Shown piece by piece: positions 943 to 21,829 of a stretch of 64,000 nucleotides of DNA. A program made the translations under genes and the position numbers. Within the stretch, counting starts at the first letter, position 1, and the number at the start of each line of letters is the position of its first letter. Under the pieces are notes generated by a model, which worked only from the letters and a program-made list of their open reading frames with translations, searched no databases and was not told where the DNA came from. The DNA comes from Flavobacteriales bacterium (lineage in GTDB: Bacteria; Bacteroidota; Bacteroidia; Palsa-965), in contig JBEIPA010000028.1 of NCBI GenBank assembly GCA_040377305.1, positions 1 to 64,000 of the forward strand, given 5' to 3'.

Positions 943-1026
943 ATAAAATAGAAAAGTCTCTCAGAAATGAGAGACTTTCTTTGTAGCCTCGACGGGACGA
1001 ATATCGAACTTATTCCTTTTGGATTT
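943..1026. repeat. att-like scar A (terminator hairpin + gtag core + cgaatatcgaac)
   Basis: 84-bp ungapped alignment to 16764-16847, with conserved blocks ataaaa(t/c)agaaaagtctc, gagactttctttgtag, cgaatatcgaac and ggattt. Confidence 0.8.
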
Positions 1027-1060
1027 AGCGAAAATATAATGTACCAACTGCCAATCCGAC

Positions 1061-1204
1061 TCACCCGTCTGACTTAGGTGGGGATGGTGGGGGTGGTGGT
1101 GGGGGACTTTCATATTTTGGTAGGCTAAGCCCCTTGCCTCCACTGTGCTCCGGCTGCGGAACTTGTGGAGTCTGCGGTGGTGTTTTAGGATGATCGTTGT
1201 TCAT
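1061..1204 (-). CDS. 47-aa proline-rich micropeptide MNNDHPKTPPQTPQVPQPEHSGGKGLSLPKYESPPPPPPPSPPKSDG
   Basis: Manual translation ATG 1204 to TGA 1061. Shares PKYxxPPPPP with the neighbouring peptide and starts 11 nt after its stop. Confidence 0.65.
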   Translation of the reverse strand: MNNDHPKTPPQTPQVPQPEHSGGKGLSLPKYESPPPPPPPSPPKSDG

Positions 1205-1215
1205 GGCTATGGATT

Positions 1216-1329
1216 TTATTTTGGTTTTTTAGGTGGAGGCGGTGGATTTACATATTTAGGCATCGTCGAAAGTTTGGACTTCCTAGCCGGTGCTTGCTTT
1301 GTTGATCGCTTAGCTTTTTTCATTTGCAT
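1216..1329 (-). CDS. 37-aa basic proline-rich micropeptide MQMKKAKRSTKQAPARKSKLSTMPKYVNPPPPPKKPK
   Basis: Manual translation. The ATG overlaps the upstream stop (TGATG), suggesting translational coupling. Carries the PKYxxPPPPP motif. Confidence 0.65.
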   Translation of the reverse strand: MQMKKAKRSTKQAPARKSKLSTMPKYVNPPPPPKKPK

Positions 1330-1820
1330 CAAGTATTAAATACGCGTCGAAAGTAATCATCAGAGTGCTGTTTTGCTGTCAAAACGATTTTCCTCGGCTT
1401 GTAACGAATGGTCTCATTTATCAAAGTCGTTAATTCCAGTTCTTCGTTGCGATACTTATAAAACGCTTTTGAGACTTCCGCATTAGAGAGCACATTATTT
1501 TCCATATCTATCCACAGCTTTTCGAGTTTTGAGTACTGCCCTGTATAGAATTTTTCAATCTTATCAATATTGGCGATCATCTTTTCATCCATAACAATGT
1601 GAGATTGAAATAAGCGAACAATGGAGATTGCTGAAATAATTATGCACGCGACAAAAGAACTTTTATCCCAACAGTACCATCCGAAAATTCCAGAAGTCGA
1701 AAAAAGTAAAATACCAAAGTTGACCATTCTTAGAACGAATCTTTGCCTTTCTGAGTATAGAGCACAAAACTCTACGTGATGTTTAACTTGAGTCAATTCG
1801 CTCCAGAGAATTTCGCGCAT
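1329..1820 (-). CDS. SLATT-like two-TM membrane protein
   Basis: Probable start MREILW. N-terminal helix, two adjacent hydrophobic segments (VNFGILLFSTSGIFGW; FVACIIISAISIV) and a helical tail with Y..LE.LW, which is the SLATT-type layout. Confidence 0.6.
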   Translation of the reverse strand: MREILWSELTQVKHHVEFCALYSERQRFVLRMVNFGILLFSTSGIFGWYCWDKSSFVACIIISAISIVRLFQSHIVMDEKMIANIDKIEKFYTGQYSKLEKLWIDMENNVLSNAEVSKAFYKYRNEELELTTLINETIRYKPRKIVLTAKQHSDDYFRRVFNT

Positions 1821-1920
1821 TTTAAAAAATATCAGCGGTTCAATATGTGGTTTTTCATTCAATTACTATATCCTCATCGATGTTTGATAGAAAGATAGTA
1901 AAAGTGAGTAATTTCATCAA

Positions 1921-2460
1921 ATGTCAGAATTTGGGAACGCGTTTCTCGAATCCGAGTGGTTTCGTGGCTTCGTTGCGGGGGCTTTTGCCACAGTGTTTGG
2001 CTTTCTTCTCACTGTCCTTTGGGAGGTAATAAAAAGTAACCGAGATTCTAAACAAAAGGACAAGGCTATACTTCTGGCCATTGAACAGGATTTAATTGCA
2101 GGAGCAGAATTAGCGACAAGAAATATTAAACTACTCAATCAGGAATTGGTAGGACTAGAAACTGGTCTAACCTTAACTATTGCACTTGAACGGTTTTATA
2201 GTGGTTTCTGGGACTTGGTCAAAGTGAATGTTCCAAAGCAAATCCTTAATTCGGAAAATGGACTACGAAATTTAAGAGGTATAGCGGCGTTTATGTCCGA
2301 AGCAAATGCCACTATTGATTCACGAGAACAATATAAAATCACGAATTATAACGTGCATAATTATCACGAGCGGTTAAAGGACTACAATACAAAACTGGTT
2401 GGCGGTTTAATGTTGCTTATTGATGACATCGACACTGCTCTAAAATGCATTATGAAGTAG
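1921..2460 (+). CDS. Hypothetical protein, one N-terminal TM plus helical domain
   Basis: 179-aa ORF with GFVAGAFATVFGFLLTVLW followed by a charged helical region. Confidence 0.75.
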   Translation: MSEFGNAFLESEWFRGFVAGAFATVFGFLLTVLWEVIKSNRDSKQKDKAILLAIEQDLIAGAELATRNIKLLNQELVGLETGLTLTIALERFYSGFWDLVKVNVPKQILNSENGLRNLRGIAAFMSEANATIDSREQYKITNYNVHNYHERLKDYNTKLVGGLMLLIDDIDTALKCIMK

Positions 2461-2498
2461 CTAATCGGTTCTACGATTTGAATGGATCTAAGCCCACT

Positions 2499-2533
2499 TT
2501 CTGCCTGTGTTACGCAAAGCAGCACAGGCAGAA
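2499..2533. terminator. Hairpin between convergent genes
   Basis: 11-bp inverted repeat ttctgcctgtg / cacaggcagaa. Confidence 0.55.
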
Positions 2534-2565
2534 TATTAGGCAATCGAGAACGGTTATTATAAGGC

Positions 2566-4122
2566 TCATCTCTGTACGATAATTTTTTCAGCAATGAAAC
2601 TTTCTCCAGCATGAACATTTACGATATATAGACCATTTAGGTACAATGACAGGTCAATTTGAGAATCTATACTTGTTGTTGAAGTGATCGTTTCTTGATA
2701 AACCATTTGTCCAAAAACATCGAACACTTCGATATTTACATCTTGTGCTTCACTTAGCTGCCCGACAATTGTAACTATTCCCTCCGTTGGATTCGGATAC
2801 AACTGGAAGAATGAAGCGCGAAGATCAATGTTATGTATTGAAACTGAAGCGCAGTTTATCTCTCTCTGAAATTGTGTTGCGCGTATGATTGGATTGGTCG
2901 CCTGAACTGTAACTAGAGAATCGGTACCGGGTATAAGCGGCATCGTCGAATAGTTCCATTGTATATTCAATGGATACATACTGAGGGGTATTTCGTTACA
3001 ACCCGAATATCCATTCGAGTCAAAGCGAGAAATAATCACATTCGTTAGACCGCCACCATAGGAAGCAGTTGAACCTGTTAGTATGATTTCGCCTGTATTA
3101 GTAATGTCAAGAGCGTTTGGCCAATCATTCATACTTCCGGTTATCATTCGTGACCATAACCATGTTCCATTTGGGTCGATTCGAGTAAGTTCAATTTTAT
3201 TGATTGATGGTCCAATAAGTGTTATGGCAGAATAAGTTAAATTTCCGAGGGTATCTTCCATCAGCCCCTTAGTCAAAAACTCATTACCTACGCTGGTGTT
3301 CGAAAATGATTTGCACCAAACCGTATCGCCTACAGCATCTAATTTTAGTAGAATTGCTCTAGAGTTAGGAGCTTGAATACTGGATATAAGAACAACAAAA
3401 CCTGAATCGCGGGTTTGAATTAAGTCGCTACAGATATTAATTCCAGATCCATCATACAGCCTTTGCCAAATGATTGTTCCAGTAGAATCAACTTTGTAAA
3501 CAAGAATGTCGTTAGAACTACTGGTGGCGGCTATGACGAAGTTTCGGTCGTCGGTTTCAATAAACTCGATTGTCTCGGTCAGATATTGACTACTGAGTGA
3601 GTTGTTAAATTGCCATAACGTATTTCCGGCAGAATCTAGTTTGATAATACCAAACCCATAAAGTGACGTATAACTAAAGACTAATCCACAATCAGAGGAT
3701 TCATGTATCTCATAGTTCGCATATATCGGAAAAAACTTGCGAATCCATGTAAGTGTACCCACGGAGTCAAACTTTATCACCTCAGTAGCAAATGGTAAAG
3801 TATCGTAAACTGTCGTAATGCAAACAACTCCACCATCATGAGTTGCTGCAATTCCGGTTAACCATTCATCCTCGTAAGGTTCTCCTAAATATTTAGTCCA
3901 CAAAGTGTCTCCTAATGAATCGAACTTCATCACGAAAAAATCACGCCATTGAGGATCATAAAAATTTGAACGACCGCCAACATAGTATGAATTGTTTCTA
4001 GAGATTGAAATATAAGCTCCTTCTTCAGAACTATCCGTGGAATAAACTTTCTGATAGGTGTTCTGAGTATATATGCAGGTGTGAAGAGAAATCAATAAGA
4101 AAACAAAAACGCCCTTGATCAT
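2566..4122 (-). CDS. T9SS type-A sorting domain protein with beta-propeller repeats
   Basis: Signal peptide, repeated K.DS.G...W motifs, C-terminal LYPNP...GLYIV...KIIV. Confidence 0.9.
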   Translation of the reverse strand: MIKGVFVFLLISLHTCIYTQNTYQKVYSTDSSEEGAYISISRNNSYYVGGRSNFYDPQWRDFFVMKFDSLGDTLWTKYLGEPYEDEWLTGIAATHDGGVVCITTVYDTLPFATEVIKFDSVGTLTWIRKFFPIYANYEIHESSDCGLVFSYTSLYGFGIIKLDSAGNTLWQFNNSLSSQYLTETIEFIETDDRNFVIAATSSSNDILVYKVDSTGTIIWQRLYDGSGINICSDLIQTRDSGFVVLISSIQAPNSRAILLKLDAVGDTVWCKSFSNTSVGNEFLTKGLMEDTLGNLTYSAITLIGPSINKIELTRIDPNGTWLWSRMITGSMNDWPNALDITNTGEIILTGSTASYGGGLTNVIISRFDSNGYSGCNEIPLSMYPLNIQWNYSTMPLIPGTDSLVTVQATNPIIRATQFQREINCASVSIHNIDLRASFFQLYPNPTEGIVTIVGQLSEAQDVNIEVFDVFGQMVYQETITSTTSIDSQIDLSLYLNGLYIVNVHAGESFIAEKIIVQR

Positions 4123-4137
4123 AAGTCTTCTATTTCA

Positions 4138-5301
4138 CTATTCACCCTTAATCACACAAACCTTCTTGCAGATTTGCTCGCCATTAGGTCGGGTCAATAC
4201 TGCAACATACAATGCCTGACCTTCCGTCATAAATCTGAAATCATTTTGATAATCATCACTGGCATACACCAATCGTCCGCGAACATCATAAATATCCAAT
4301 TGCGAATTAGATTCGAGTCCAGAGATGAAAAATTCGTTCGTAGCTATAACCGCGGTAGGAATAAATATAGAAGCAGCACTGTGACAGTCACGGTTAACGG
4401 TTACGTTTACTGTATCATAAATTACTGCGTCACATTCCGTTTGCTTTAGAATGTATTGAATCGTAGTATCAGGAGAAGCAATGGGATTTGAAATATTTGG
4501 ATTGCTTAGCCCGTCTGCTGGTAACCATTCGTAAAGAACATTTGTCCTCGGTGCAGTTCCTAATTGAATACTATCCATATAACAAATTGAAATATCACTT
4601 CCGGCATTGCATTCTGCGAGTTCATATACCGCCACATCATCTATATAAAAATAGGCTAGCATATCATTGTTAAAAGGGAAAGCGATAGTGTCAGTCTGGT
4701 CGTCGGCATAGAAATTTCCGATTGTTATATAAGATTCATAACCATTGGCTAGGTAGACACCGTTAATTCTTACCCAGTTCATAGTGTCCGTGAACACGGC
4801 ATTAGAGTCAAATGAAATTTGGGGAATTACTGAAAGAGTATCAATTGCGATAAGATCCACGACGGGTAAATTGGAAATATGAAGGCCCAATCGGCTTATT
4901 GCCCAGTAAGAGCTGTCGGATAAAGAAGCATAAAATTCGACGCAATATATTCTGCCGACGACAAGCGGTTGAAGAAGCTGAACTTCGAGATATTGCCGCC
5001 GATTATCAGTGCCATTGTATGTATAGCCATAAGAGCCAACAGCAGCATAACCGTTTCCGGTTTTTGGGGCTTGTGTACCCATCCAGTTCTGCGGCACACT
5101 ACTTGTGAAAGATGAACTACATTCATTATATAAATCGGGAGTATCAGGATTGCCGCCAAACCACGGCGCGGCAAATGAAATTTGATCGGGAGTACTAGGA
5201 CAACTATCAATGATTTCAAAGCTCGGATTGGGCACAAGGTTGACCTGACACTGTGCGAGCGTCCCAATCATTAGAAAAGCGACCAAAATCAGCCTATTCA
5301 C
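4138..5301 (-). CDS. T9SS cargo with NLVPNPSFE carbohydrate-binding-like domain
   Basis: NLVPNPSFE..PDLY..YFYIDDV domain and CTD (IYDVRGRLVY). Start moved to GTG 5301 because the ORF-track start lies in a hairpin and TATCTTTG sits at 5314-5307. Confidence 0.85.
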   Translation of the reverse strand: MNRLILVAFLMIGTLAQCQVNLVPNPSFEIIDSCPSTPDQISFAAPWFGGNPDTPDLYNECSSSFTSSVPQNWMGTQAPKTGNGYAAVGSYGYTYNGTDNRRQYLEVQLLQPLVVGRIYCVEFYASLSDSSYWAISRLGLHISNLPVVDLIAIDTLSVIPQISFDSNAVFTDTMNWVRINGVYLANGYESYITIGNFYADDQTDTIAFPFNNDMLAYFYIDDVAVYELAECNAGSDISICYMDSIQLGTAPRTNVLYEWLPADGLSNPNISNPIASPDTTIQYILKQTECDAVIYDTVNVTVNRDCHSAASIFIPTAVIATNEFFISGLESNSQLDIYDVRGRLVYASDDYQNDFRFMTEGQALYVAVLTRPNGEQICKKVCVIKGE

Positions 5302-5315
5302 CTTGTCAAAGATAA

Positions 5316-5351
5316 GGAAACCCACCCCGCCGCATGTTGGGGTGGGTTTCC
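5316..5351 (-). terminator. Stem-loop downstream of the large T9SS gene
   Basis: 13-bp perfect inverted repeat ggaaacccacccc / ggggtgggtttcc. Confidence 0.65.
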
Positions 5352-5357
5352 AGTTAT

Positions 5358-8300
5358 TTACTCACGAATGATTACTAAACGATCAGACTTCAGCATTTCA
5401 CCTTGTGAACGAATACAATAGATATACGTTCCGGTTGGTAAATATGATGCGTCAAAAGTGTAAAGACCCTGACCACCTACAAACTTCCAAGTACCAACCA
5501 ATCGACCTGTAAGATCAATCAGTTCAAAAGTCCCCGTTTGTCCGTCAGCAATTTCCAGCTTGATTGAGACTGAACCATTCGACGGGTTCGGGAATGCAGG
5601 TGAGATTGAAGGAGCGTCAGCAAACGGTGTTGAGTATTGTTGCATCCTCACGGAACTACTGTCGTGCACCTCCAACATCATCATGTTCCGAGCATCGAAC
5701 ACTGCCGTTCCTCCCGTGAGCATTCCCTGATTGATAATAGCAGTGAGAATCGCTTTTTGAGTTGAGTCAAGATTCATGCTATCAATTGCCCACGTGTGCA
5801 GATACACATCCAAGACAGCTTTGCGATTTGTTTCATATTGTCCTGATGGAGTAATTGAATTGAGCAAGGTAATTGCTCCGTTCACCTGCCCGCTAGAAAT
5901 AGAATCTTCAACATCGGCAAACTTTCCAATGTTCGTGGAAGATGGTGTAGTGTAGAACCCTGAATAGTATGAATCGTCAGCAGTGCCCAATGATTTCCAC
6001 GAAGGATTTTGACGCAGCATCCTGTACGCAAAAACCTTGTCGTGATACTGAAACTGAGAATTCAGAGTATCATAAGTACGCGGCGTTTTGCAAATTCCTG
6101 CAAGACTGTAATTGCGGATTCCCTCTTGAGTCTGTGCAGGAGGTGCAAGCATGAATGTGCAACGATCACCATTTCCCGTATATACAGTAGCATTGTTAAA
6201 CAGACTATTGAAGAACATTGAACTTACATCAGGGTTATACGTAGTATAGTACCATTTAATTCCATTACCACTTACAGGCAGTATTCTGCCCGTAATGTCC
6301 TCTCCTCCCGCTGCTGTACTCCATGCGTTGCCCGTTGAATACGGTGTTCCTGCGGATGTCCAGGCAATCTGGTCATTAATTGATACACCTACGCCGTAGC
6401 CGTTCAGATAATTGAAGTTAACTCCAAACCAACACGTCGTCATGTTGTTACACGCGAGAATACAAGGGTTGTTCGTACCTTTTAAGAATACCCCACTGCC
6501 CATTCTCTGCACTGTATTCTTTGTAACCGTGTCATTCTTACAATTCGTCATGTGAATACCAAAAATCTCGTCATGCACCGCTTGCGTAGGTGAAGATTGC
6601 ATAGAAACACCATTCTGACGAATCATCGAGTTCGTAACTTCTTCGAGCTTAATTCCAATGCAAGGAACAAGCTGCGACATCGGTTGACCTGTCATAAAGT
6701 TGATCGGCGTGTTGTCTGTAATCTTGCACTTGTCTACACGACTCACCCAAATTCCATTTCTCATTTTCTTAATGGAATTATACTGGATAAACAGGTTAAC
6801 AGGTGTCAGTGCAGCTTGAACAACATAGATACCCGTATTTCCGAAATTACCCGGTACGTAGTTCTGCGAATTGTTAATCGAGTTGTATGTTATTCTAATC
6901 GTTGACGAGGTAGACTGAATACACTGAATATTTGTTCCTGTGCATTCCGTAAGTGTGTCTGCATTAATTAGAATAGTCCGGCTCTGGCAGTTCATCGTCG
7001 TTATTCCCGCAGTTTGACATGTATCAAAGCGATTGTATTCACAATTCAGGTTAACGTAGTTGTAGGCGTAAACACCGTAGTTGCATTTTGTGAATTTGTT
7101 TTTCGCTTTGTAGTTACCTACGCGTCCAACGGTTCCAGTTTTCGGTGTGAATTTACCTGCTGACATAAATACAGCAACTCCATTTGGAGGAAGGTTCTTA
7201 TTCAGAATCGTAGTGGTGAAATACTTGAAGTCATTGTTCCAAACTTTAACGTTGGAGCCTTTCGAGTAAACCCCGAACTGCGTACGTTCAAAGAGATTAC
7301 GATATGTGCTTGAGGTACTATCCCCTATGGTTACTGCATTGCAATCTTCAATGAATACTCCTGCTAAACCTTTACCGCTTACTGGTGCGCGACAAGTAGT
7401 CCCTGCGAACGTAATTCCTCCTGTTGATCCCGGTTGACCCGGTGCGTCACAAGCAAATATTGCATAGCGAATGACTCCGGGATGTGTTCCCGCATAAGCC
7501 TTGATATATACTCCGATATTATTCTTGTTGAACTTACAAGGTAAATTGGTTGTACCCCAGATAACGAACTTGCCACCGTTTGTAGAAACAATTGCATTCT
7601 TTGCGTCTTCAATAACAGTTCCGTTAAGAACGTTAACCAGTGAATTTGTATTTGTTCCGTCAACATAAATTCCATCCCACATATCAGAACACGCGTAGAG
7701 TTTTGTAGTTGTTGAACCACTGTTCGTCAACTCAAACACAATTCCGGGATTAACCACAATCTTAGCATTCGGTCCGAGTTTTACTTCACAGCCTTTCAAT
7801 CTTGTGTGCTTGTTGATTGTCCAGACACCGTTAACGGAGAATTGACCACCTACCGATTCGTAGTAGCCTGCATTGATGCTGAACAACGACGGGAAGCTGA
7901 CGCTATCGACATGACCAACGGTTTCATTGAGGATGTTTGCGTAGGAGCCTTCCTGACCTTCTTTGAAAGGACAACACGTGGGAACGTTGGTTAGAGCTGA
8001 ACCCTGACATCCATTCGCGTCAACGATTGATACGGAAACAACAACCGGAGAATTTAACGTGTCGTACGGATGACCGTTCCAGCAAGCTGAGAATGTTGCG
8101 CAGGAGGCACACGAACTACTGGTGGCACTTGTTGACCACAAGTAAGAAACTCCCGATGGAATTGTAGTAAATCCAAAACATCCACCACACATCGAAGCAC
8201 CTGGAGGTGAAACTATACTTACGGCTAGTGGTGTTACTGTAACCTTTACAGTGTCTTTCAACGTGCATCCAGTTGAGGAGTTGGTTACGGTGTATACATA

Positions 8301-9845
8301 AGACGTGGTGGAGGTAGGTGTAACAGTTGTGCTTGTGCATCCGGTACACAGTGTTGCACTATTAAGAATTGACCACGAAGTAGTAGTAAACGTTCCTGTA
8401 GCCGTTCCGGAAAGTGTTGCAGAACCTCCCAAACAAATGCTCTGATCTGCTCCAGCGGAAACTGTGAGAGGACTGGCAAGCCATGTCGGGGAAACAGTAG
8501 CCGTCGACGTACATCCATAAGTAGGCATGTAAGTGGAAACCGTATATGTTGCAGCGTAATTGATAGGCGACGTAACGTTTATTGTTGGACAACCTGCACC
8601 TGAACAGCTCCAGTTGGTTCCAACCGGTGCGCTCCACGTATAGGTACCATTGCTTAACGGTGAGTTAGCTGTGATGGAAACAGTATTTCCTGATTTACAC
8701 AGTGGATTAGGTAAATATGAAAAGGAGATCGGGTATTGTGGTTCAACAGTAAAATCGTCGATGTAATAATATGCTCCGAACTGCGGATATGTAACCGATG
8801 TATCAATTCCACTTGGTACAACAGAACTTCTTCCTTGCACCGCGTCAGCGTCAAAATTTCCGATTGTTGCCCAATACGTTCCGGTGACCGCAGGAGTATA
8901 GTTGCCCGTGATCTGCACCCATCCGTTTGTTGTGGTAATAATTGTTGGCGAGCTAATCTGTGGTGTAACGTTAATGATTGACGCCGGAAGAACAGGCAAA
9001 GGTTGAGTAGTGGAAAAATATACTCCGATGTGATTGACAGCAAAACCTGAATAATCTGACAAGCTCACCCAAAATGATACTTTGTAGGTAAGACCTGCCG
9101 TCATAGTTGTTCCTAACTGTGTCTGGACATACTCGCGAAAATCAGGGTCAGGGTAAAGTACATTCGGATTATGGTAGTACATGAAAGCACCAGTGTATGT
9201 AGAACCGCTATGTGAAGTTTCATTACCCCACGCGTTGGACGGAATGCTAACATGTGAACCAGAGGTTGAACTGGAATGGAAGTACTCAGGTGTACCTACT
9301 GGCTTCCAAAAGCAACATTTGTTATTTACCTGCGAAGGTCCTGTTGGAACACTACCCCAAGTATCAAAAGTGGGATTGCAAGCCAATTGACAAGTCGTTA
9401 TCGAACAGGCTCCGCAAGGTGGCGTTGCGCTTGCAGAAACAGATAGACAAGCATTGAACTGTATACTGGCAGTTGAAGTACGCGACACCTTCACCAGATA
9501 GTTGGTCGATGCACTTACCGCACTTTCAAGAATCAGCATACCATGATCATTTATACCCGTCTCAACCAAAGTCAATGTGCCGCAGCTACCAGTGTATAGC
9601 TTCACAGCACTCATTTGATTGGGCTGTCCTTCAGGACTTGTTACGTTCAGGTACATGGTGTGAGCGTTTGCTCCTGAATTGAACGAGAACCAAACAACCG
9701 TATCGGAAGTTGACACGCTATTGTTACAGCCATTAACCGTAAGCGCAATTGGAGATCCACACGTTTGAGCGTGGATGAACCCTGCGATGAGCAGGAAGAA
9801 AAGGAAGGCGGTTGCACGTTTAAACCGCGTGTGTGTTTTTTTCAT
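5358..9845 (-). CDS. 1495-aa T9SS-secreted protein (CBM-like, Ig-like and parallel beta-helix regions)
   Basis: Signal peptide, YYIDDF CBM-like domain, N-x-F/GI beta-helix repeats, CTD AFPNP...GTYIY...RLVII. Confidence 0.9.
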   Translation of the reverse strand: MKKTHTRFKRATAFLFFLLIAGFIHAQTCGSPIALTVNGCNNSVSTSDTVVWFSFNSGANAHTMYLNVTSPEGQPNQMSAVKLYTGSCGTLTLVETGINDHGMLILESAVSASTNYLVKVSRTSTASIQFNACLSVSASATPPCGACSITTCQLACNPTFDTWGSVPTGPSQVNNKCCFWKPVGTPEYFHSSSTSGSHVSIPSNAWGNETSHSGSTYTGAFMYYHNPNVLYPDPDFREYVQTQLGTTMTAGLTYKVSFWVSLSDYSGFAVNHIGVYFSTTQPLPVLPASIINVTPQISSPTIITTTNGWVQITGNYTPAVTGTYWATIGNFDADAVQGRSSVVPSGIDTSVTYPQFGAYYYIDDFTVEPQYPISFSYLPNPLCKSGNTVSITANSPLSNGTYTWSAPVGTNWSCSGAGCPTINVTSPINYAATYTVSTYMPTYGCTSTATVSPTWLASPLTVSAGADQSICLGGSATLSGTATGTFTTTSWSILNSATLCTGCTSTTVTPTSTTSYVYTVTNSSTGCTLKDTVKVTVTPLAVSIVSPPGASMCGGCFGFTTIPSGVSYLWSTSATSSSCASCATFSACWNGHPYDTLNSPVVVSVSIVDANGCQGSALTNVPTCCPFKEGQEGSYANILNETVGHVDSVSFPSLFSINAGYYESVGGQFSVNGVWTINKHTRLKGCEVKLGPNAKIVVNPGIVFELTNSGSTTTKLYACSDMWDGIYVDGTNTNSLVNVLNGTVIEDAKNAIVSTNGGKFVIWGTTNLPCKFNKNNIGVYIKAYAGTHPGVIRYAIFACDAPGQPGSTGGITFAGTTCRAPVSGKGLAGVFIEDCNAVTIGDSTSSTYRNLFERTQFGVYSKGSNVKVWNNDFKYFTTTILNKNLPPNGVAVFMSAGKFTPKTGTVGRVGNYKAKNKFTKCNYGVYAYNYVNLNCEYNRFDTCQTAGITTMNCQSRTILINADTLTECTGTNIQCIQSTSSTIRITYNSINNSQNYVPGNFGNTGIYVVQAALTPVNLFIQYNSIKKMRNGIWVSRVDKCKITDNTPINFMTGQPMSQLVPCIGIKLEEVTNSMIRQNGVSMQSSPTQAVHDEIFGIHMTNCKNDTVTKNTVQRMGSGVFLKGTNNPCILACNNMTTCWFGVNFNYLNGYGVGVSINDQIAWTSAGTPYSTGNAWSTAAGGEDITGRILPVSGNGIKWYYTTYNPDVSSMFFNSLFNNATVYTGNGDRCTFMLAPPAQTQEGIRNYSLAGICKTPRTYDTLNSQFQYHDKVFAYRMLRQNPSWKSLGTADDSYYSGFYTTPSSTNIGKFADVEDSISSGQVNGAITLLNSITPSGQYETNRKAVLDVYLHTWAIDSMNLDSTQKAILTAIINQGMLTGGTAVFDARNMMMLEVHDSSSVRMQQYSTPFADAPSISPAFPNPSNGSVSIKLEIADGQTGTFELIDLTGRLVGTWKFVGGQGLYTFDASYLPTGTYIYCIRSQGEMLKSDRLVIIRE

Positions 9846-9956
9846 TTGAGTTTTTTTTAGTTTGTGAAGAATTTAGGATGGATTAGGCATCATGTGGTTA
9901 ACTGGAGTCGTAGTTCATTTTGTTTAGATTAGTGTAGTAAATACAAAACACTCATT

Positions 9957-10622
9957 CACGTTGAAACACAACGTGGAAAACTAATTTTCACTCAGTAATC
10001 CCCCTCCACTACGGGTGAAGTCCGTAATGAAACAACACTAACCGCTGAACTATTCAGCAGTTGCGTCCTGTTCTAATGGAACAGTCTATAAGACCGAAGT
10101 GCTTCACACACGGTGAAAGTCACTTCGGTTGCGATCTCACATGGAACCCACATGAGTGGAACCGATTGCCGGGGGGAATTAGCAATCGTTCCGATCAGAA
10201 TTTCTTAAACGATTTCAGCAGATGGAAATCGAACACAAAGTAACTAGATGCTAAAGCAAAAAAGTGCTAATCTTCTGCCAGTTTATACACGTCAAGTATT
10301 TCTACGCTAGAGTTATTTTCCGAATCTCGTTTGTTTGTTTCTAAACAGCCTGATTTGATTTCCGAATTGTTTAAGTGGTAAACATAATTTCTGTGCGAAC
10401 GGGAACAATGTTGTAAGTAGACATTGTTCCCGTTCCTCTCGGAATTGTCCTGACCGCATAACCCCTTATTGAGCCAGTCCAACACGCACAGGAGGGGACT
10501 GCCGAAGCAGTAGTATTGTGCATCTACAATATCCGCTAATACAAATGGGGGCGCGGACACGCGGATCGTCCGCAATGGCGGTACTGGATACCGATGCGCA
10601 GGACAAGTCCACAGCCCGCGCC
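9957..10622 (-). ncRNA. Candidate structured RNA / long 5' leader
   Basis: More than 12 inverted repeats, a cUUCGg and a GAGA tetraloop on the minus strand, and crossing helices. Lies between a minus-strand promoter (10733-10726) and the ATG at 9845. Confidence 0.5.
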
Positions 10623-10725
10623 TTTTACGCGAGCGTGCAACTTGTAATTCCTGCGCTTTTGAAATTTTCCAGTTTTCCATTTGCAGAACTACAGCTAAAC
10701 GCTGTTTAAAATCTCACTAACAGGT

Positions 10726-10733
10726 CAAATATA
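10726..10733 (-). promoter_or_regulatory. Bacteroidota -7 promoter element TATATTTG
   Basis: Exact TAnnTTTG on the minus strand, pointing to the T9SS genes. Confidence 0.55.
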
Positions 10734-10745
10734 TAAATTATTTGA

Positions 10746-10774
10746 AATAGTGTCACCTAAAAGATGACACTATT
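10746..10774. promoter_or_regulatory. Operator-like palindrome
   Basis: aatagtgtca-N9-tgacactatt, perfect 10-bp arms, between divergent units next to an XRE gene. Confidence 0.65.
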
Positions 10775-10835
10775 GACACCCTAATGGGGACGGTATATTA
10801 ACCGTCTCAGAACTCCTTTTAGGCAGTTTTGCCCT

Positions 10836-11126
10836 ATGGTAATCCATATTGGAAATAAGATAAGGCAGATTGCAGATCAGAAGGGTTTAAAGATTGCCGA
10901 ATTAGGTCGTCGTATTAACACGGCTCGGCAAAACGTTTACAAGATTCTTTCAAAGAAAACGATAGATACAGGCTTGCTGTTGAAGATTTCAAAAGTGCTT
11001 GAGTACGATTTCTTTCAACACTACACATCGCTCAAAGACGAAAACCAAAAGCTCCGTGAAGACAATGCTCTGCTAAAAGAGATGATTGAACTCCTGAAAG
11101 AAAAAGGCGCTAAGAAAAAGAAGTGA
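10836..11126 (+). CDS. XRE-family HTH regulator with C-terminal coiled coil
   Basis: HIGNKIRQ..KGLKIAELGRRINTARQNVYKI..IDT.LL.KIS.VL.YDFF. Confidence 0.9.
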   Translation: MVIHIGNKIRQIADQKGLKIAELGRRINTARQNVYKILSKKTIDTGLLLKISKVLEYDFFQHYTSLKDENQKLREDNALLKEMIELLKEKGAKKKK

Positions 11127-11147
11127 CAATTTACAGAGACGAAACGA

Positions 11148-11993
11148 TTAGGCTCTAGTGAATTTTACTTCGCGTAATTTATCCGGTGGTTCTTCAAATA
11201 TAAAGTTGGTATTGCTATTAAGTTCATAAAAGATTATTTGGGGAGTCGTTTTGTATGGAGTTAAACTGGCTACGGCACTTTTCAGCTGTGCCTTGCATTC
11301 ATTATACAAGTTTTCTTCCAATTGCTTATCAGTTTCCCAGCCTTCTATAATAAAAGGAGACACTTTCAATTTGCAATTATCTTCAAGTTCTTTGATTTTT
11401 TCTTGTGATGTCTTGATATTTTGTAATCCAAAAAAAACGTTGTCATGAGGAATAGATGGCTGCTTTCTTCCAATAATGCTAAAGCCAAGAGCCATGTAAA
11501 TTCCAAAAACATTTTTTCCGTTTTCTCTACCGAAAAGCGAAATAGTTGTCACTTGAGTTTGGCTATTCTGAAGCGTTATTGATTCCTTTGCTATTTGCAA
11601 AAGTTCCGGTTCATTTTCCAAATGCTTGAACAGATCCTCCTGCTTCAATACACCATTTCCATCGTTAAACCTTGGTATGAGTGCGGATAACGTCCGAATA
11701 TTTTCAATCAGTTTTTCATGATTGGAATTGAAAATAAATTGTAAATCGCCTTCAACCGCGTCGTATGTTTTATTAGTATTCTGGATACTTAATATGTATT
11801 TGTAGATGTCCGTAATTTTGTGCGGTATACCGATTATAGAAATTGCAGTCTCATCGGATATTCGGTACACTTTCTTAGCATCAGTCAGAGTAAGCCTGAG
11901 TTGCTGATCTGCTTCCCCAATTGTTATTTCGAGGTTTTTATCCACGGCAATTAGGATGAAATTATTTGTAACAACGTATCCTAGGCTTTCCAT
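11148..11993 (-). CDS. Hypothetical protein, possible Ntn-hydrolase/proteasome-beta-like fold
   Basis: Probable start MESLGYVV. The pattern ILIAVD....KKVYRI...AISIIG resembles the beta-subunit AD/KI/G motif spacing. Confidence 0.6.
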   Translation of the reverse strand: MESLGYVVTNNFILIAVDKNLEITIGEADQQLRLTLTDAKKVYRISDETAISIIGIPHKITDIYKYILSIQNTNKTYDAVEGDLQFIFNSNHEKLIENIRTLSALIPRFNDGNGVLKQEDLFKHLENEPELLQIAKESITLQNSQTQVTTISLFGRENGKNVFGIYMALGFSIIGRKQPSIPHDNVFFGLQNIKTSQEKIKELEDNCKLKVSPFIIEGWETDKQLEENLYNECKAQLKSAVASLTPYKTTPQIIFYELNSNTNFIFEEPPDKLREVKFTRA

Positions 11994-12390
11994 ATTCTCT
12001 TGTTTGTATGATTTCACGAATATAGCCCCAAAAAAACAGAACACTTTGTCTGACGACATGGTTAGAATATTGACTGTTGATTTTGAGGGTGGGGCTGAAC
12101 TTGCTTTTCACATATTGGAACGGCTGCCGAATTCACAATAAAACGTACCAATTGTCAATTTGGGTGTAACAAACTTTATACCTCTGCGTTTTATAACCAG
12201 TACGCTGAAAGAATAGATCATCTTAACAATTTATGCGGTCAACATAAACCCAATGCCGAACCTTAAAACGTGCCGCCCATGATGAATCTGTGAAAAAGAA
12301 TTCCACGAAAAGTCTCCCCGTAATTTTATCCTAAACTTGAAGTGATCTCATGTCCGAAAGGTTTTTGAATAAGGGAAAAGAAAGTACACG

Positions 12391-12633
12391 ATGTTTCATG
12401 TACGCCCTTACAAAGTCAAAGAACTGGCGTCTCTATATCATATCAATCTAAGGACTTTTCAGCGGTGGCTTTACCGCATTAGAACTAAGCTAGGAAAGAT
12501 CGAAGGTCAGTATTTAATGATCGAGCAGGTCGAGATAATAATCAGTCATTACAAGATGCCCTATTTTATACAGGTCGAAGTTGTAAGTGAAGATGAGGCT
12601 GAAAGTAACGGCAGTAAAACTAGATCAGCATAA
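12391..12633 (+). CDS. Small HTH protein, DUF4248-like
   Basis: KELASLY.IN.RTF.RWL...QVE.I..H pattern. Confidence 0.7.
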   Translation: MFHVRPYKVKELASLYHINLRTFQRWLYRIRTKLGKIEGQYLMIEQVEIIISHYKMPYFIQVEVVSEDEAESNGSKTRSA

Positions 12634-12757
12634 CCCTGAATTCGATTTCAATGTTCAAAGTAAGAACCTATCAGTGGCAGGGATAACTACCCGCAAACCT
12701 GAGCCTATGCCAACGAAAAGTGTTTGATAGAGTCGTGCAGAAAGTGTTGCGCAAAGG

Positions 12758-12786
12758 AACGCCCCGCAATTGCATTGCGGGGCGTT
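12758..12786. terminator. Intrinsic terminator between convergent genes
   Basis: 13-bp GC-rich stem aacgccccgcaat / attgcggggcgtt followed by a T-tract. Confidence 0.8.
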
Positions 12787-12793
12787 TATTTTT

Positions 12794-14086
12794 TCATTGC
12801 TCAGACAAGTTGTCCAGCGGAATCCAACCAGTGAATTCTTCCGTCCCGGGATTTGGAATGTAACGGACTTTGACCCACTTCTGGTAAGTGTACAGAACCT
12901 CCACAGAAGCCGATGCTGGTAGATTTACAATTACAGCAGAACGACCTTTGGGCTCTGCAACTAACTTGCACTGAACTATCGTTGTTAGTCGCGTTTCTGT
13001 TGGCATATTATCTTGAACTTCCTGTAACAAACTCATAATCGCTGCATATTCTTTCGCCTGCCTTGCTTCCGCCCTTTTCTGTAAGGCGATATTTTGTTTA
13101 TTGCCTGCATTAATGCGTTCAGACTGTTCCTTGAATCGTGCATCAACGTACTCCTCAGTTGTTACGGGATGAGCGAAGGCATCATAAGCCGCGTAAACAG
13201 CGTAGATCGTTAGCACAAATTGAAGAAATAAATATGCTGCCTTTACATCCTTGTGATCCTTAAATCGAGTCAACGAAGCAACAATCGAGCTCGCGACCTG
13301 TTTTAGTTTCTTAGCTGATATTCTTTTACTCTTAATTGCACCACGCGAAATAGACGTGTTTACCTGTGCAAAATCTTCAAGCAGTTTCCATTGCTTGTTT
13401 TCAATTGCGAAATCCGTCAAGTGAACTGTTAACGGAATCACTGGTACTTGCAGAAGTTCTAGGCCAAGACCTTTAACGTTAGCATTAAAACCATCAATAC
13501 CTTTAACAACATTGACAGAACTGCCATGCAGACGAACAATAGCATCAAAAGCACTTTTAGGAGCGCTCACTGATGACAGCCGACCGAATAGTAAGTCAGT
13601 ACCTAAAGGTACTTTGACTGCATCGTAAGCTCCAGTAGCAAATGCAATTGAATTTATGGTATTGAGACTCTTGGTGAGGTCATCCAATACCTTTGGGATT
13701 TTACTGCAATTTTCAATAGCAAGGTTAAAGTCCGTTGCAAACACCTTTTCAGGCAAAGTATTTCGGAAAGCTAGATTTGAATTTGCAAGAACATCTATGC
13801 TCTCAAAAAAATTACGTGTCTTACTGGCACGGGTGTCCACTTGGTTCACGTTCAAGAGATACTTATCCAAAGCATTTGCCTTCTCAAAACTTTGAAGATA
13901 AGTGCTGATTTTATCATGACCATCTAAAGTCTTTTTTACCGAAAGGGAGAAAAGCTCATCATAATTTGTCACCGCTATCCTGCGATCTAATTTGCTCTGG
14001 AATAGATCTGTAAAGTGGAACGCTGATAGCCCTGTTCCTAAACCATCACCAGACCACGTTCCCAAATCACTTATACGCCTGCTCAT
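12794..14086 (-). CDS. Hypothetical protein with internal TM and C-terminal bacterial SH3-like domain
   Basis: C-terminus L...P...S.VI..L....VEVL....KWVKVRY....GWI. Confidence 0.75.
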   Translation of the reverse strand: MSRRISDLGTWSGDGLGTGLSAFHFTDLFQSKLDRRIAVTNYDELFSLSVKKTLDGHDKISTYLQSFEKANALDKYLLNVNQVDTRASKTRNFFESIDVLANSNLAFRNTLPEKVFATDFNLAIENCSKIPKVLDDLTKSLNTINSIAFATGAYDAVKVPLGTDLLFGRLSSVSAPKSAFDAIVRLHGSSVNVVKGIDGFNANVKGLGLELLQVPVIPLTVHLTDFAIENKQWKLLEDFAQVNTSISRGAIKSKRISAKKLKQVASSIVASLTRFKDHKDVKAAYLFLQFVLTIYAVYAAYDAFAHPVTTEEYVDARFKEQSERINAGNKQNIALQKRAEARQAKEYAAIMSLLQEVQDNMPTETRLTTIVQCKLVAEPKGRSAVIVNLPASASVEVLYTYQKWVKVRYIPNPGTEEFTGWIPLDNLSEQ

Positions 14087-14374
14087 CTTGGGTAAATTTT
14101 AAGGTTACACTCTACTTTCAAATTTACTGCACTGAATACTACTTTTCACAAAATGGACTAATAAAACTGTCCTACTGAGGTTCGCAAACTGAACCAAACA
14201 TCCCAAAACTCAGCTAACCTGCGACCCACCTCGCCAAACCTTGACATCACCCTTTTTCACTGGCGTAATTTTGTACAACCGAAATGAAGAGTGCGAACGT
14301 GATGTTGACGGCTTGCATCTGGTGTGCGAACCTTGATTTTGCAGGACTTGCCGACTATGCAATATAGGGAGGTC

Positions 14375-14722
14375 TTACAACGAAAAAACCGGACTAGTTG
14401 TTGAAGAAACAACCGAATCCGGTTTAGTAGCCCTAAGCGGACAAATATCGAACTTTTTAATAACGGTTTTAAGATACCAGTCGCCGTAAACGTCGAACCC
14501 AAAAAAGTCGCTGGCATAATGGTTCCTCTTCGACTTGTCGCGATCAAGCCGAACTGTGTGTTCATTCACCACAACGTCCTCTACAGAATTGCTCACTGAA
14601 TACAACGTTCCGATTGGAGTTTGGAGGATTTTCCATTCGCTATTGGAGCATTCCAGTAGAGCAAGTGCTTCACTCGTTGCAACGCACGTATAGCCGCCCT
14701 GCACAATAAACCGATGATACAT
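14375..14722 (-). CDS. Hypothetical protein
   Basis: 115-aa ATG ORF co-oriented with its neighbours; no motif recognised. Confidence 0.5.
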   Translation of the reverse strand: MYHRFIVQGGYTCVATSEALALLECSNSEWKILQTPIGTLYSVSNSVEDVVVNEHTVRLDRDKSKRNHYASDFFGFDVYGDWYLKTVIKKFDICPLRATKPDSVVSSTTSPVFSL

Positions 14723-14810
14723 GATGTTAGGATTTGATCAGTATCGAAGGTTATGTTGGTTTTTAGGAAGTCCGACTAAGAAAATTAGTTTTCTGTTAAG
14801 GATCAGAATT

Positions 14811-15200
14811 TCACCAAAGACCAATCATGAGTAGTCCGGAACATACAACAAAAAATAGCACCACAGAAAAACACCCGCCGCTGTTTCGGGATGCATCCTT
14901 AATCACATCATCCGTTGATTTTTTAGCATAAATAAAAACACTACTGCCGTGCCCATGTTGATAGGAGAGTTTGCTCAAGTGATAGCCCTTCCTAAGAAAA
15001 TATTCGACGACACTTACGGCCGCCGCGCTAGTCCGTAAATTCTCAAAATGCCAATGCTCCGGCAAGTCGGCTTGTGGCTTGACGTTGTGTTCTTCATCAA
15101 ACGTATAACCAGCGTAAAGAGTGTAATCTGAAGGAACATCCTTAAATGAATCTTCGACAGCTTTAATGAATTTTTCTGTATGTAATTCTACGCTGGACAT
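14811..15200 (-). CDS. Hypothetical protein with C-terminal TM anchor
   Basis: 129 aa ending SGGCFSVVLFFVVCSGLLMIGLW. Confidence 0.65.
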   Translation of the reverse strand: MSSVELHTEKFIKAVEDSFKDVPSDYTLYAGYTFDEEHNVKPQADLPEHWHFENLRTSAAAVSVVEYFLRKGYHLSKLSYQHGHGSSVFIYAKKSTDDVIKDASRNSGGCFSVVLFFVVCSGLLMIGLW

Positions 15201-15545
15201 GAAATAATCAGTGTGTTAAAACCAATTAACCTGATTTCAGAGTTGCTCCTGTCGCTTATATCCAGGGGGGCACTCTTTGTGGAATAAACCTCAGAAGGGT
15301 TTCCCCTCCTGAACATTCATAGCTTGCATCTTACGCTAGTTCATCACAATTTAATCCATTGGGGAAACAAAACAAAATGTCAGTCACATTATCTGTAACT
15401 AGCATTCTTCATTCTTGCAGCCCTGAGTGAGCAGATAACTAACTTTATAGTGGGTGATTTGGCTAAAATGGCAGATTAGCCGTTTACAAACGTTTGCTCC
15501 CGACTAGGGTGGGACATTTGGTCTACGTTTGATAAAACAACAAAA

Positions 15546-16172
15546 ATGGAGACAATTAAAAAAACAGGAATATTGTTCGATGGTTATCACACATGGCTGG
15601 GCTTCAAGGATATTTTGGGAGAGAGCAAGTTACATCTGCTAAATTTTACGAAGGCTGAATCTAACCTACGCGCATTTATCAAAGCGGAAATAAATTGGGA
15701 CAGTCAAATTATGTATCGGGGATGGTTCCAAGGAATAAGGAAGGGCTATTTGCCCTATAATGATGTGAAAAAACTCAGAGGTGAGGAGAAGGAAGGCCTT
15801 ATGAGGATAATCAATAAATACCATAGGGATCGAGAATTGCATTGGGCTTTAATTGAGGCTGGAATCGAGCCGCTTTGGTTGCAATTAAAAAAACTTCATG
15901 ATGCAAATGACGTTGAAGAGAAAGGGGTTGACGCGGCACTTGTCATAGCTGCACTGAGAAGAGTCGACTTTTACAATTTGGACACATTGATTGTTTTCAC
16001 AAACGATCGGGACTATGAACCGCTCTTTCATAATCTGCGCAAACACAACATTTCAGTGATAACCGTCGATTGTACACCGGAGGGGAGCAGAAACTATGTC
16101 AAGCCGTTTCGTTATGTCGATCGTTCCTTTTACTATAGGGAAATATTTCCAGACGAAAAACACATCAAATAG
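15546..16172 (+). CDS. NYN domain (LabA/DUF88, PIN-fold) protein
   Basis: ILFDG, EEKGVD and FTNDRDY.P acidic motifs. Confidence 0.9.
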   Translation: METIKKTGILFDGYHTWLGFKDILGESKLHLLNFTKAESNLRAFIKAEINWDSQIMYRGWFQGIRKGYLPYNDVKKLRGEEKEGLMRIINKYHRDRELHWALIEAGIEPLWLQLKKLHDANDVEEKGVDAALVIAALRRVDFYNLDTLIVFTNDRDYEPLFHNLRKHNISVITVDCTPEGSRNYVKPFRYVDRSFYYREIFPDEKHIK

Positions 16173-16251
16173 TAATTTACAGTGATACGACGAGTGTTAT
16201 AGATTATCAGTTTACAAGCATTTCCAAATTGCAGGATAATTAGAACTTAAG

Positions 16252-16639
16252 ATGAGCGAATTAAAAAAGAAGCAGCATTATGTTTGGCGGTATTACTTAA
16301 GATCCTGGGCAGTCGATGAGCGCATTTGGACTTACTTTAAGGAGTTGAAAAGTGACGCGCCCCAACCTGATGGGAGTAGGACAGGAGAAATATTTTTACA
16401 AACTGGTCAACCTAACTGACAAGGAGGAACAGTTACTTGAGTTGTTAATCATTGACCTTAGCCCTCCTTCGCTTCAAAAAGCCCATCTGGATTACCTGAA
16501 TATGTTTACAGCTCCGTACAAGCTAAAGGTGATCCTTGATTCTAAAGCAACAACCACCAAGAAAAAACAAATAGTTCAATCTGAAATTAAGAAGCTAGAG
16601 GCATACGCTTCAGTCAAAATTATTTTCCAAGGTCGATAG
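16252..16639 (+). pseudogene. Frameshifted, truncated DUF4238-like gene
   Basis: MSELKKKQHYVWRYYLRSW from ATG 16252, a frame change at the A-run near 16348-16351, then NLMGVGQEKYFY. It runs into the antisense of the GIY-YIG fragment. Confidence 0.7.
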
Positions 16640-16761
16640 CGCAGCGTAAAACCTTTCGTTGCTTTTTCATTGTGCGAAAGGAAACGATCTGCCGGATCTG
16701 AACTGTAACCGGTGTAGTGCTTGTTGTGCTTCTCCGAATATAAAACGTAAACGTACCACAT
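16576..16761 (-). pseudogene. GIY-YIG nuclease (YhbQ/UPF0213-like), C-terminally truncated
   Basis: YVYVLYS...HYTGYS.D...R...HN....FT..YRPW. The expected A..RE..LK catalytic helix is absent. Confidence 0.85.
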
Positions 16762-16763
16762 CT

Positions 16764-16847
16764 ATAAAACAGAAAAGTCTCCCATTTCTGAGAGACTTTC
16801 TTTGTAGACTGGAGGTCCCGAATATCGAACCGTTTTAAGGAGGATTT
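16764..16847. repeat. att-like scar B
   Basis: Second copy of the 84-bp unit at 943-1026, in direct orientation. The GIY-YIG ATG follows it almost immediately on the minus strand. Confidence 0.8.
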
Positions 16848-16936
16848 GAGGGTTTTTGAGGATATGAAGCTGAGAAAGGTTTTAATCTAATACGAAAAGA
16901 CTTGTTTTTGAACCCACCGTAATTCAGTGTAACTTC

Positions 16937-17287
16937 ATGTCCATGAGAACACTATCCACCATTTCGGCAATTGCTTTGCTTGTGATAACCTCCAGCTTTG
17001 CTAAACCCAAGCTTGCAGAGGTTGTTATCAAAACAACGTTTTACTGCAATCACTACGATCAATGTGAAAGCAAGCCTGCTTTGGAGAAAGAGATTATGCT
17101 GACGAGTGGCGTTAAATCGGTAGTGATTGATGGCAAGGCACAAACTATAACAGTACAGTACAAACCGAAGATGGTTACACCGGATAAAATACGCACGGTG
17201 ATTTCAAATGCAGGTTATGATGCCGATACTGTAAAGGCTAATCCGAATGCGTACGATAAGCTCGACGGTTGCTGCAAAAAGAAGTGA
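16937..17287 (+). CDS. Exported heavy-metal-associated (HMA) domain protein
   Basis: Signal peptide, C.H..QC, GVKSV..D.....I.V.Y......I...IS..GYDAD, C-terminal CCKK. Confidence 0.85.
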   Translation: MSMRTLSTISAIALLVITSSFAKPKLAEVVIKTTFYCNHYDQCESKPALEKEIMLTSGVKSVVIDGKAQTITVQYKPKMVTPDKIRTVISNAGYDADTVKANPNAYDKLDGCCKKK

Positions 17288-17330
17288 GTTGCTTCGATTT
17301 CTCGGACAGTTGAAGGGCTAACCCCTTTCT

Positions 17331-20195: not shown

Positions 20196-20226
20196 TTTCT
20201 ATATTTTTAGAAGGCTTTGCAAATTA

Positions 20227-21251: not shown

Positions 21252-21278
21252 AAAAGACTAAAAAAATGATTAATACTC

Positions 21279-21825: not shown

Positions 21826-21829
21826 GTGT

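Follow-up and report, generated by a model that had tools for sequence, protein, structure and literature searches.

Serine integrases are assumed to need two short, roughly symmetric sites of ~50 bp and a separate directionality factor and, to our knowledge, they have long been said not to use tRNA genes. The available part of the Islander paper of 2015 (PMC4383910) states that no serine recombinase was known to target tRNA genes. Among published cases, dsiB of the Dehalococcoides ssrA islands comes closest, as a precedent for a large serine recombinase (LSR) gene that crosses the attachment (att) site in tandem islands. According to the available part of McMurdie 2011 (PMC3146451), DsiB is a serine recombinase of ~540 residues, the 3' end of its gene overlaps attL, the islands stand in tandem and many of them lack an integration module; it was suggested that dsiB works fully only in the circular form or where a neighbouring island precedes it. 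Here, we describe a similar arrangement in a stretch of 64,000 nucleotides from a Flavobacteriales bacterium (contig JBEIPA010000028.1, positions 1 to 64,000, forward strand; the window), in which mobile islands lie behind the gene of an initiator tRNA (tRNA-fMet). We propose, with a probability of roughly 0.78, that three islands were stacked here by an LSR family whose gene crosses the att site, and that this involved an exchange of the C-terminal tail of the enzyme, accessory boxes within its gene and the activity of a GIY-YIG nuclease module.

The likeness to DsiB is one of layout, taken from the available description of that protein: here, too, the 3' end of the recombinase gene overlaps attL and the islands form tandem arrays. 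The Dehalococcoides islands have features of their own in that description, namely the T-loop of ssrA as target, a 20-bp direct repeat, a second recombinase, DsiA, and a six-gene module, whereas the family described here uses the last 4-5 bases of many tRNAs, has one recombinase with a terminator inside its gene, and shows no dsiA-type module in the Pfam annotation. A gene that extends across attP, so that integration alters the C-terminus, is also described in the available part of PMC4383910 for the Mx8 and SSV-type integrases, but these are tyrosine recombinases with longer tRNA identity blocks and an unrelated fold. As far as the descriptions at hand go, Islander and TIGER islands and tycheposons share the cargo at a tRNA 3' end, the restored tRNA, the stacking and the decay of older elements. 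However, the Islander definition does not fit, since the enzyme is a serine and not a tyrosine recombinase, only 4-5 bp are shared and BLAST found no displaced fragment of the tRNA gene. Because no such fragment is long enough for BLAST, islands of this kind are likely missed by a search for tRNA fragments.

The recombinase and its target

The tRNA-proximal element, island C, encodes an LSR of 535 residues from its ATG (37106..38713, plus strand; the open reading frame (ORF) is open from 37076) with Resolvase and Recombinase domains (PF00239, E 1.7e-29; PF07508, E 1.5e-11) and a YTRVSS motif with the catalytic serine. It is the only serine recombinase of the genome (tblastn, E<=0.01). Translation and a frame check revealed that the ORF runs through the crossover core and ends in codons antisense to the tRNA. 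The Cys pairs of the zinc ribbon are present in P0001. The structural models are of two homologues; those of P0030 and of the C-terminal part of L207, which is 34% identical to the window LSR, have a zinc ribbon with an inserted coiled coil and match the LI, SprA, Bxb1 and phiC31 chains (Z about 10). In almost every row, the alignment with known LSR structures ends at model residue ~229-236 out of 290, and the tail lies beyond. According to the models, the family has an extension of ~55 residues that crosses the att site. Canonical serine integrases (Listeria LI/A118, SPbeta SprA, phiC31, Bxb1) are alike in their Resolvase and Recombinase domains, the fold of the homologue models, the short core and a 5-bp shift of a motif between attB and attP; unlike them, the present family has this extension, no mirrored box in the left half of the site and direct boxes at -109 and -258 from the core.

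The search for LSR homologues gave matches in 30 of 61 relatives (E<=0.001) and in 14 of 201 genomes of the phylum (E<=1e-30), both counts including this genome. A tRNA or tmRNA was called at 29 of the 47 loci with strong matches, and in 29/29 the core lies in frame 0 of the LSR gene; the targets include Met, Arg, Ala, Ser, Leu, Pro, Glu and Asn. The enzyme is placed in an LSR family of the Bacteroidota whose gene crosses the joining site; T9SS (type IX secretion system) domains and the labels of homologues assign the host to the same phylum. The scores stay under the NCBIfam equivalog cut-offs for XisF (117 vs 375 bits) and for CcrB and CcrC of SCCmec (91 and 72 vs 900). Viral contigs, searched with a single LSR protein, gave no match, and the phage and plasmid collections contained distant LSRs only (best rows 22-32% identity), with no plasmid record that reached 80% coverage of the query. 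In G043 (L011 / L174), a broken LSR is located next to tmRNA, and its left-arm sequence recurs at a P arm elsewhere in that genome, which suggests that tmRNA ends are also used.

The target is tRNA-Met(CAT) (38672..38744, minus strand; ARAGORN and Rfam). Its pair 1:72 is unpaired and its anticodon stem has three G-C pairs, which are features of initiator identity; its T-loop gives TCGAAC at +16 from the core (38688-38693). According to the ARAGORN and Rfam calls the tRNA is intact after integration, with the cargo between the island ends, and a scan of positions 1-40000 for known RNA families returned none but this tRNA at gathering score. A hairpin within the recombinase coding sequence (38625..38667, minus strand; -21.2 kcal/mol), followed by a T run and found in the same layout in homologues, is the putative island-supplied replacement terminator of the tRNA (P' arm).

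Junctions and stacked elements

The preliminary description of this DNA read two sequences of 84 bp, at 943-1026 and 16764-16847, as att-type junctions tied to the end of tRNA-fMet, and the present analysis supports it in this. As it had stated, the two scars align without gaps and have the common layout hairpin-ttgtag-11-cgaatatcgaac-11-ggattt; 63/84 positions are identical, and the best other ungapped 84-mer match in the whole 5.18-Mb genome reaches 45/84. The likeness is neither chance nor that of a high-copy repeat. Each scar is made up of a host-type terminator hairpin, an island arm and, between them, a core GTAG that is also found at the end of tRNA-fMet, where it forms the final bases of the gene (38672-38675). 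The core gtag(c) of the preliminary description holds to its full 5 bp (GTAGC) in the scar at 983 and to 4 bp in the scar at 16804. A BLAST search of the genome with the tRNA end found no longer partner elsewhere, so that one finding that would have spoken against the earlier proposal did not turn up. The right half of each scar is no relic of the tRNA; it is read as the attP arm of an island, encoding a recombinase tail, and what had been described as '11 variable' blocks is coding sequence for a conserved peptide.

The strict right-half motif (GTAG core plus arm) occurs four times in the genome, at 983, 14427, 16804 and on contig C49, where it lies ~1.3 kb from tRNA-Arg(CCT). Two near-matches to the arm on contig C7 proved to be chance hits in coding sequence. 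These counts bear on the idea of a dispersed repeat, raised as a possible objection in the preliminary description and considered here as a palindromic repeat, either REP-like (repetitive extragenic palindromic) or nuclease-associated, unrelated to integration. The left 40 bp of the scars are minus-strand terminator-like hairpins whose loop is inverted between the two copies, and weakly similar hairpins on contigs C28 and C60 would also fit such a repeat. However, only the two full scars exceed 45/84, all four strict arms in the 5.18 Mb lie within 38 kb of a tRNA end, and in other genomes the arms match LSR/tRNA loci in their core and orientation and encode recombinase tails. We regard the repeat as a highly improbable explanation.

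At the distal end, a host-type terminator hairpin forms the left, B'-like arm (943..982, minus strand; -19.8 kcal/mol, T-rich tail); in genome G007 of the same genus, this hairpin stands behind both tRNA-fMet and the copy of it. The core of junction 1 (983..986, plus strand), which equals 38672-38675, marks the distal end of element X and is followed by island P arm 1 (987..1039, plus strand) with TCGAAC at +21 (1004-1009) and an 18-codon recombinase-tail peptide in the GTA frame. Junction 2, which had gone unmentioned in the preliminary description, is a copy of the right half of the repeat and consists of the GTAG core and P arm 2 (14427..14489, plus strand; TCGAAC at +21, 14448-14453). In place of a host hairpin, its left side has the decayed 3' end of a recombinase gene (14300..14426, plus strand), recognized in translation by an xRT remnant and KKxG...SxxV-type codons, with an embedded terminator hairpin (-19.4 kcal/mol) and a degenerate GCGAAC box at -101; it is too short to give a tblastn match. 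Junction 2 is therefore read as a junction between tandem islands. Junction 3 comprises the GTAG core and P arm 3 (16804..16890, plus strand; TCGAAC at +21, 16825-16830) with a tail of 28 codons that would be in the recombinase frame if joined at the core. The hairpin to its left (16764..16803, minus strand; B' arm; -18.7 kcal/mol), directly upstream of the start of a GIY-YIG gene, is likely the pre-insertion terminator of the tRNA, as judged by comparison with G007.

The scars at 983, 14427 and 16804 are likely the tRNA-distal junctions of mobile islands, and we read the locus as three elements, X, Y and C, stacked behind tRNA-fMet, not two. The island with a recombinase that had been placed in the first site is supported: island C would extend over 21.9 kb (16808..38671) with heavy-metal cargo, a MerR-type helix-turn-helix (HTH) gene and the intact LSR gene. 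Of the related island from 987 that was thought to lack its recombinase end, the lack of an intact recombinase stands, but it appears to be two elements split at 14427, of which the distal one keeps ~130 bp of a decayed recombinase 3' end. Element X (987..14426), bounded by junctions 983 and 14427, would carry type IX secretion system (T9SS)-type cargo and two small HTH genes and no intact recombinase; element Y would be a remnant (14431..16596) without its recombinase end, with an NYN-domain gene and a frameshifted, truncated DUF4238-like gene (E 5e-4, under the gathering cut-off). GC contents are 0.415 (X), 0.408 (Y) and 0.436 (C) vs 0.451 for the genome. The MerR-type gene just upstream of the recombinase (36039..36851, plus strand; PF13411, E 7e-6) is a candidate regulator or directionality factor. 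Within X, an 80-residue excisionase-like HTH gene (12391-12633; weak Pfam HTH matches) is a possible remnant of a directionality factor. The cargo of C includes a cadmium-family P-type ATPase and a CusA/CzcA RND efflux set (22386-30279) as well as an HMA protein; short low-complexity repeats lie upstream of the efflux cluster (30953-31405), where contigs of other runs skip 209-272 nt.

Proposed recognition boxes and a predicted tail exchange

TCGAAC is the reverse complement of the T-loop. It stands at +16 in the tRNA and at +21 in all three window arms, and this +16/+21 offset recurs, at the sequence level, in 10 LSR/arm pairs, for which the search pattern fixed +21. In the LI integrase, the zinc-ribbon-domain (ZD) motif ends at 19 in attB and at 24 in attP, a 5-bp shift (PMC3783163, available part). 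When TA is taken as the crossover dinucleotide, TCGAAC ends at 19 in the tRNA and at 24 in the arm, like the ZD motif of LI. The enzyme would thus read the acceptor/T arm of the tRNA as one attB half, with the T-loop box as the motif of its zinc-ribbon domain; the island arm with its +21 box would be the matching attP half, crossover would take place inside the 4-5 bp core, and the island would bring a new tRNA terminator inside its own recombinase gene.

The opposite half-site would be without a mirrored box. In 27 de-duplicated loci, no mirrored GTTCGA was found within 100 nt left of the core (nearest at -111 in 2 loci and at -152 in 4); the search was for GTTCGA, and a weaker, different left motif would escape it. 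A symmetric att site with the ZD motif in both halves was therefore not found. Direct copies of TCGAAC lie in the LSR gene instead, in the window at -258 (38414..38419, plus strand; Ser-Asn codons) and at -109 (38563..38568, plus strand; x-Arg-Thr codons). Across the 27 loci the box is at exactly -109 in 24 and at exactly -258 in 16, and within 1500 nt of the core every other offset was seen at most once. By its domains the locus appears to work like a serine integrase island, without the symmetric site, and what is most interesting about it is the extended and one-sided architecture of the att site that these boxes suggest.

It could be argued that the att reading holds and that the internal boxes reflect only conserved Ser-Asn and Arg-Thr residues and shared ancestry. 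The R/T and S/N residues are near-invariant, the codons of the -109 box specify the last of the conserved strands in the zinc-ribbon domain, so that protein constraint contributes, and the -258 box is limited to the 19 loci with >=35% identity and missing in all 8 loci under 30%. However, the choice among synonymous codons is fixed as well: in 21 coding sequences (near-duplicates included) CGA was used in 17/18, ACC in 17/19, TCG in 12/17 and AAC in 15/15 cases, against synonymous backgrounds of 0.14-0.47, and bias at p<1e-4 was limited, among 100 conserved columns, to the codons of the boxes and to the core region. The two internal boxes stand in different reading frames and yet share their two 5' bases in 30/36 positions (shuffled mean 15.1; 0/20000 shuffles), a test that covers the 18 loci with the -258 box or its TCTAAC variant and leaves out 9/27. 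These flanks are specific to the element (TA, GT, TT, TG, CC), and L003 has TCTAAC at both internal boxes, which turns Arg into Leu. The two bases before the box also co-vary with the distant arm of the same element (16/20 vs a permuted mean of 8.7, p=3e-4, and vs 8.3) and not with the tRNA box (p=0.15); the permutation tests take no account of kinship, a point in favour of shared ancestry. Taken together, protein constraint and shared ancestry as the sole causes are improbable, and the evidence for a function of the boxes at the DNA level is strong, though not final. The boxes at -109 and -258 are probably accessory sites.

The second feature of the family is the tail. In the core frame, every arm encodes a V-x4-[QR]ISN-x-F-x2-DL-type peptide, and a profile of the tail ranks the four arms of the genome 1-4 in six-frame translation, P arm 1 being second. 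A scan of a genome collection gave at least 121 pattern matches, of which 80 with titles were assessed and 41 left out; among the matches listed, the downstream tail motif was present in 21/46 assigned to Bacteroidota vs 0/34 from other phyla. Natural fusions of LSR and tail, at tandem junctions, were seen in P0030, L093, L107 and L119 and in the full-length L207 and L216. This tail was present in 47 of the 150 profile matches and a tRNA tail in another 47, with 56 left unclassified, numbers that give no estimate of prevalence since the profile itself contained the tail. The median tail length is 25 residues, and the hydrophobic moment peaks at 100-120 degrees (45 tails). In a homologue model built from a tail-rich alignment, the tail is a confident helix (predicted local distance difference test (pLDDT) about 87-92) after a disordered linker. 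Since the arm encodes this helix and the ORF crosses the core, integration is predicted from the sequence to exchange the attP-encoded tail of ~25 residues for tRNA-antisense codons. The swap may damp or redirect the integrated enzyme and thus act as a switch.

Arms and recombinases could also be paired in other genomes. A relaxed arm pattern gave 21 matches in 10 chosen genomes vs 10 for a reversed control, at least 2 being chance, and is noisy on its own; its matches sit upstream of LSR/tRNA loci in the correct orientation. In 10 pairs, each chosen as an LSR and its nearest arm, the 4-base core was equal to that of the target tRNA in 40/40 positions (permuted mean 30.0, p=1e-4), which supports the scars as attR-type junctions. 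In G121 (L241-L244, G121:C1:4502624-4581178), four P arms with a GTGG core are spread over ~80 kb before one tRNA-Ala LSR.

History of the locus and its meaning

The small stand-alone GIY-YIG nuclease gene next to junction 3 (16597..16761, minus strand; PF01541, E 6.7e-12) is cut off after about 55 codons of its 5' part, abuts the truncated DUF4238-like gene and is 79% identical at the nucleotide level to an intact gene of 80 codons behind tRNA-fMet of G007 (PF01541, E 7e-16). There, the order is tRNA-fMet, the AAAGTCTC hairpin as in the window, the intact GIY-YIG gene, and then, after a degenerate copy of the tRNA, this hairpin a second time. Three of the 19 non-self matches to tRNA-fMet within the genus have this order (L036, L047, L050), of which L047 and L050 are both from G007 and L047 has the hairpin of the window and the 79%-identical gene; L037 has a truncated GIY-YIG gene, L049 is a variant and the remaining matches have a nuclease-free duplicated tRNA end or a single one. 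GIY-YIG modules are also present in G018 and on C21 and C49 of this genome, and at L104 an island arm lies directly before a GIY-YIG/tRNA-copy module at another tRNA. On C21 (G000:C21:1-400), the GIY-YIG gene has on either side a tRNA 3' end with a terminator, and the second of these copies carries a GC-rich palindrome in the T-loop region. Upstream of the window tRNA there is a degenerate partial copy of tRNA-fMet (38776..38822, minus strand; 79% over 47 nt) with the palindrome CCGCCGCGGCGG; similar copies upstream or downstream of the tRNA occur in G003, G007 and G018, with a palindrome in G007 and G018. Small single-domain GIY-YIG genes flanked by hairpin repeats are known as Ssn nucleases, and the main text of Chenal 2025 (PMC11893778), as available, contains the terms 'tRNA' and 'Bacteroid' 0 times. 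With 80 residues, the intact G007 orthologue is within the Ssn size range (single-domain GIY-YIG under 150 residues); unlike Ssn genes, the gene here lies between a tRNA and its degenerate copy.

The preliminary description had proposed an ancestral locus of the order tRNA, terminator, GIY-YIG, tRNA copy, terminator. The module as such exists in G007; that the second terminator arose in place through a GIY-YIG duplication is plausible but not proven. In the history we propose, the GIY-YIG module would have duplicated the tRNA end with its terminator, X and then Y would have entered the second site and C the true tRNA, and a deletion would have fused the GIY-YIG remnant to the cargo of Y.

Several observations weigh against this proposal, in addition to the limits of the box tests given above. 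The shared core is no longer than 4-5 bp. The first, shallow model left the tail unresolved (pLDDT <50), the reversed control of the relaxed arm pattern was high, and among the scan matches listed frame 0 is open in 38/46 from Bacteroidota and in 27/34 controls, which are weak counts. The tRNA copy between GIY-YIG and Y is absent and can only be postulated. The preliminary description had suggested a look for the empty site in close relatives and for the junction in sequencing data; neither was found. There was no syntenic empty allele among 26 genomes of the genus; G008 has a match to the left flank (83%), which is however not next to a tRNA. In the Logan contigs of 6 runs, compared with 1-20000 and 30000-41000, neither an excision joint nor an empty-site joint was seen at any of the att cores. 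Such contigs drop rare forms, a 38671-16808 joint would reach across more than one of the reference stretches and runs with a small share did not count as evidence; of X1, possibly the source sample and the sole run covering the region, one contig spans 15478-38719 unbroken.

A simple history is also called into question by recombinase-free units of the type 'tRNA|hairpin-gene-arm|hairpin', which were seen in G007, G023 (three arms), G024 and on C49. On C49 (G000:C49:161812-163208), tRNA-Arg(CCT) is followed by an intact GIY-YIG gene, an intact tRNA 3' copy, a hairpin, a palindromic insert, a hydrolase-like gene, a P arm and the same hairpin, the layout of a recombinase-free cassette in the same genome. 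Such units raise the alternative that the junctions are LSR att junctions but that the second terminator did not arise in place: units of hairpin, cargo and P arm without a recombinase would be excised together with a host terminator that they had captured as their left arm, and would integrate in trans at the ends of tRNAs, and 987-16803 would have accreted in this way. In line with this, G007 has a unit of arm, hairpin and GIY-YIG, homologous to 16652-16862 (75% nucleotide identity), downstream of its intact module; no recombinase or GIY-YIG match lies between the four arms of G121, a genome with 7 LSR matches in total; and the two window hairpins have diverged by the inverted loop, whereas the copies in the G007 module are identical. 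However, the same layouts result from the deletion of recombinase ends in ordinary tandem arrays, and junction 14427 keeps such a decayed end. An identical cassette in two genomes or sites was not seen, though no systematic search was made. We consider mobile cassettes a serious but rather unlikely explanation of the distal elements and retain the stepwise stacking of three islands.

It is tempting to go one step further. Tentatively, recognition could be one-sided, through the universal T-loop of the tRNA, with the -109 and -258 boxes standing in for the absent mirrored box and forming a looped synapse and the attP helix acting as an inbuilt switch of directionality; with its downstream half free, the enzyme could also move recombinase-free cassettes and dock at tRNA copies made by GIY-YIG. 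Within this extension, which we hold to be somewhat less probable than not, a looped synapse would be comparable, again tentatively, to the arm sites of tyrosine integrases. Literature searches found no paper on tRNA-end LSRs of Bacteroidota, on the internal boxes or on GIY-YIG/tRNA-copy modules, with supplements and the TIGER database, which may hold such islands, outside their scope; the main text of the Durrant LSR preprint, as available, has 0 occurrences of 'tRNA'.

It should be mentioned that the window also contains an ORF of 1513 codons (51658-56199) with internal repeats of ~135 residues (402-414 nt) and, next to it, one of 2113 codons, both without a Pfam match. Elsewhere in the genome (G000:C7:88552-97060), 15 tRNA genes on the same strand, including unusual Ile(TAT) and short Leu genes, resemble a mobile-element tRNA array.

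Stacking of islands at a tRNA is in itself ordinary. If the proposal is true, an integrase that reads the tRNA half only, has boxes at fixed distances in its gene and changes its C-terminus would follow a different logic of recognition and control, and it would account for a class of islands that finders based on tRNA fragments are likely to miss. The core, TCGAAC at +21 and the tail peptide together would provide a simple signature by which such islands could be mapped. The predicted extra binding sites would let such LSRs insert at many tRNA gene ends, and the family would offer integrases for native tRNA ends in Bacteroidota. Should the one-sided reading hold as well, tRNA ends would be integron-like sites of accretion across the Bacteroidota.

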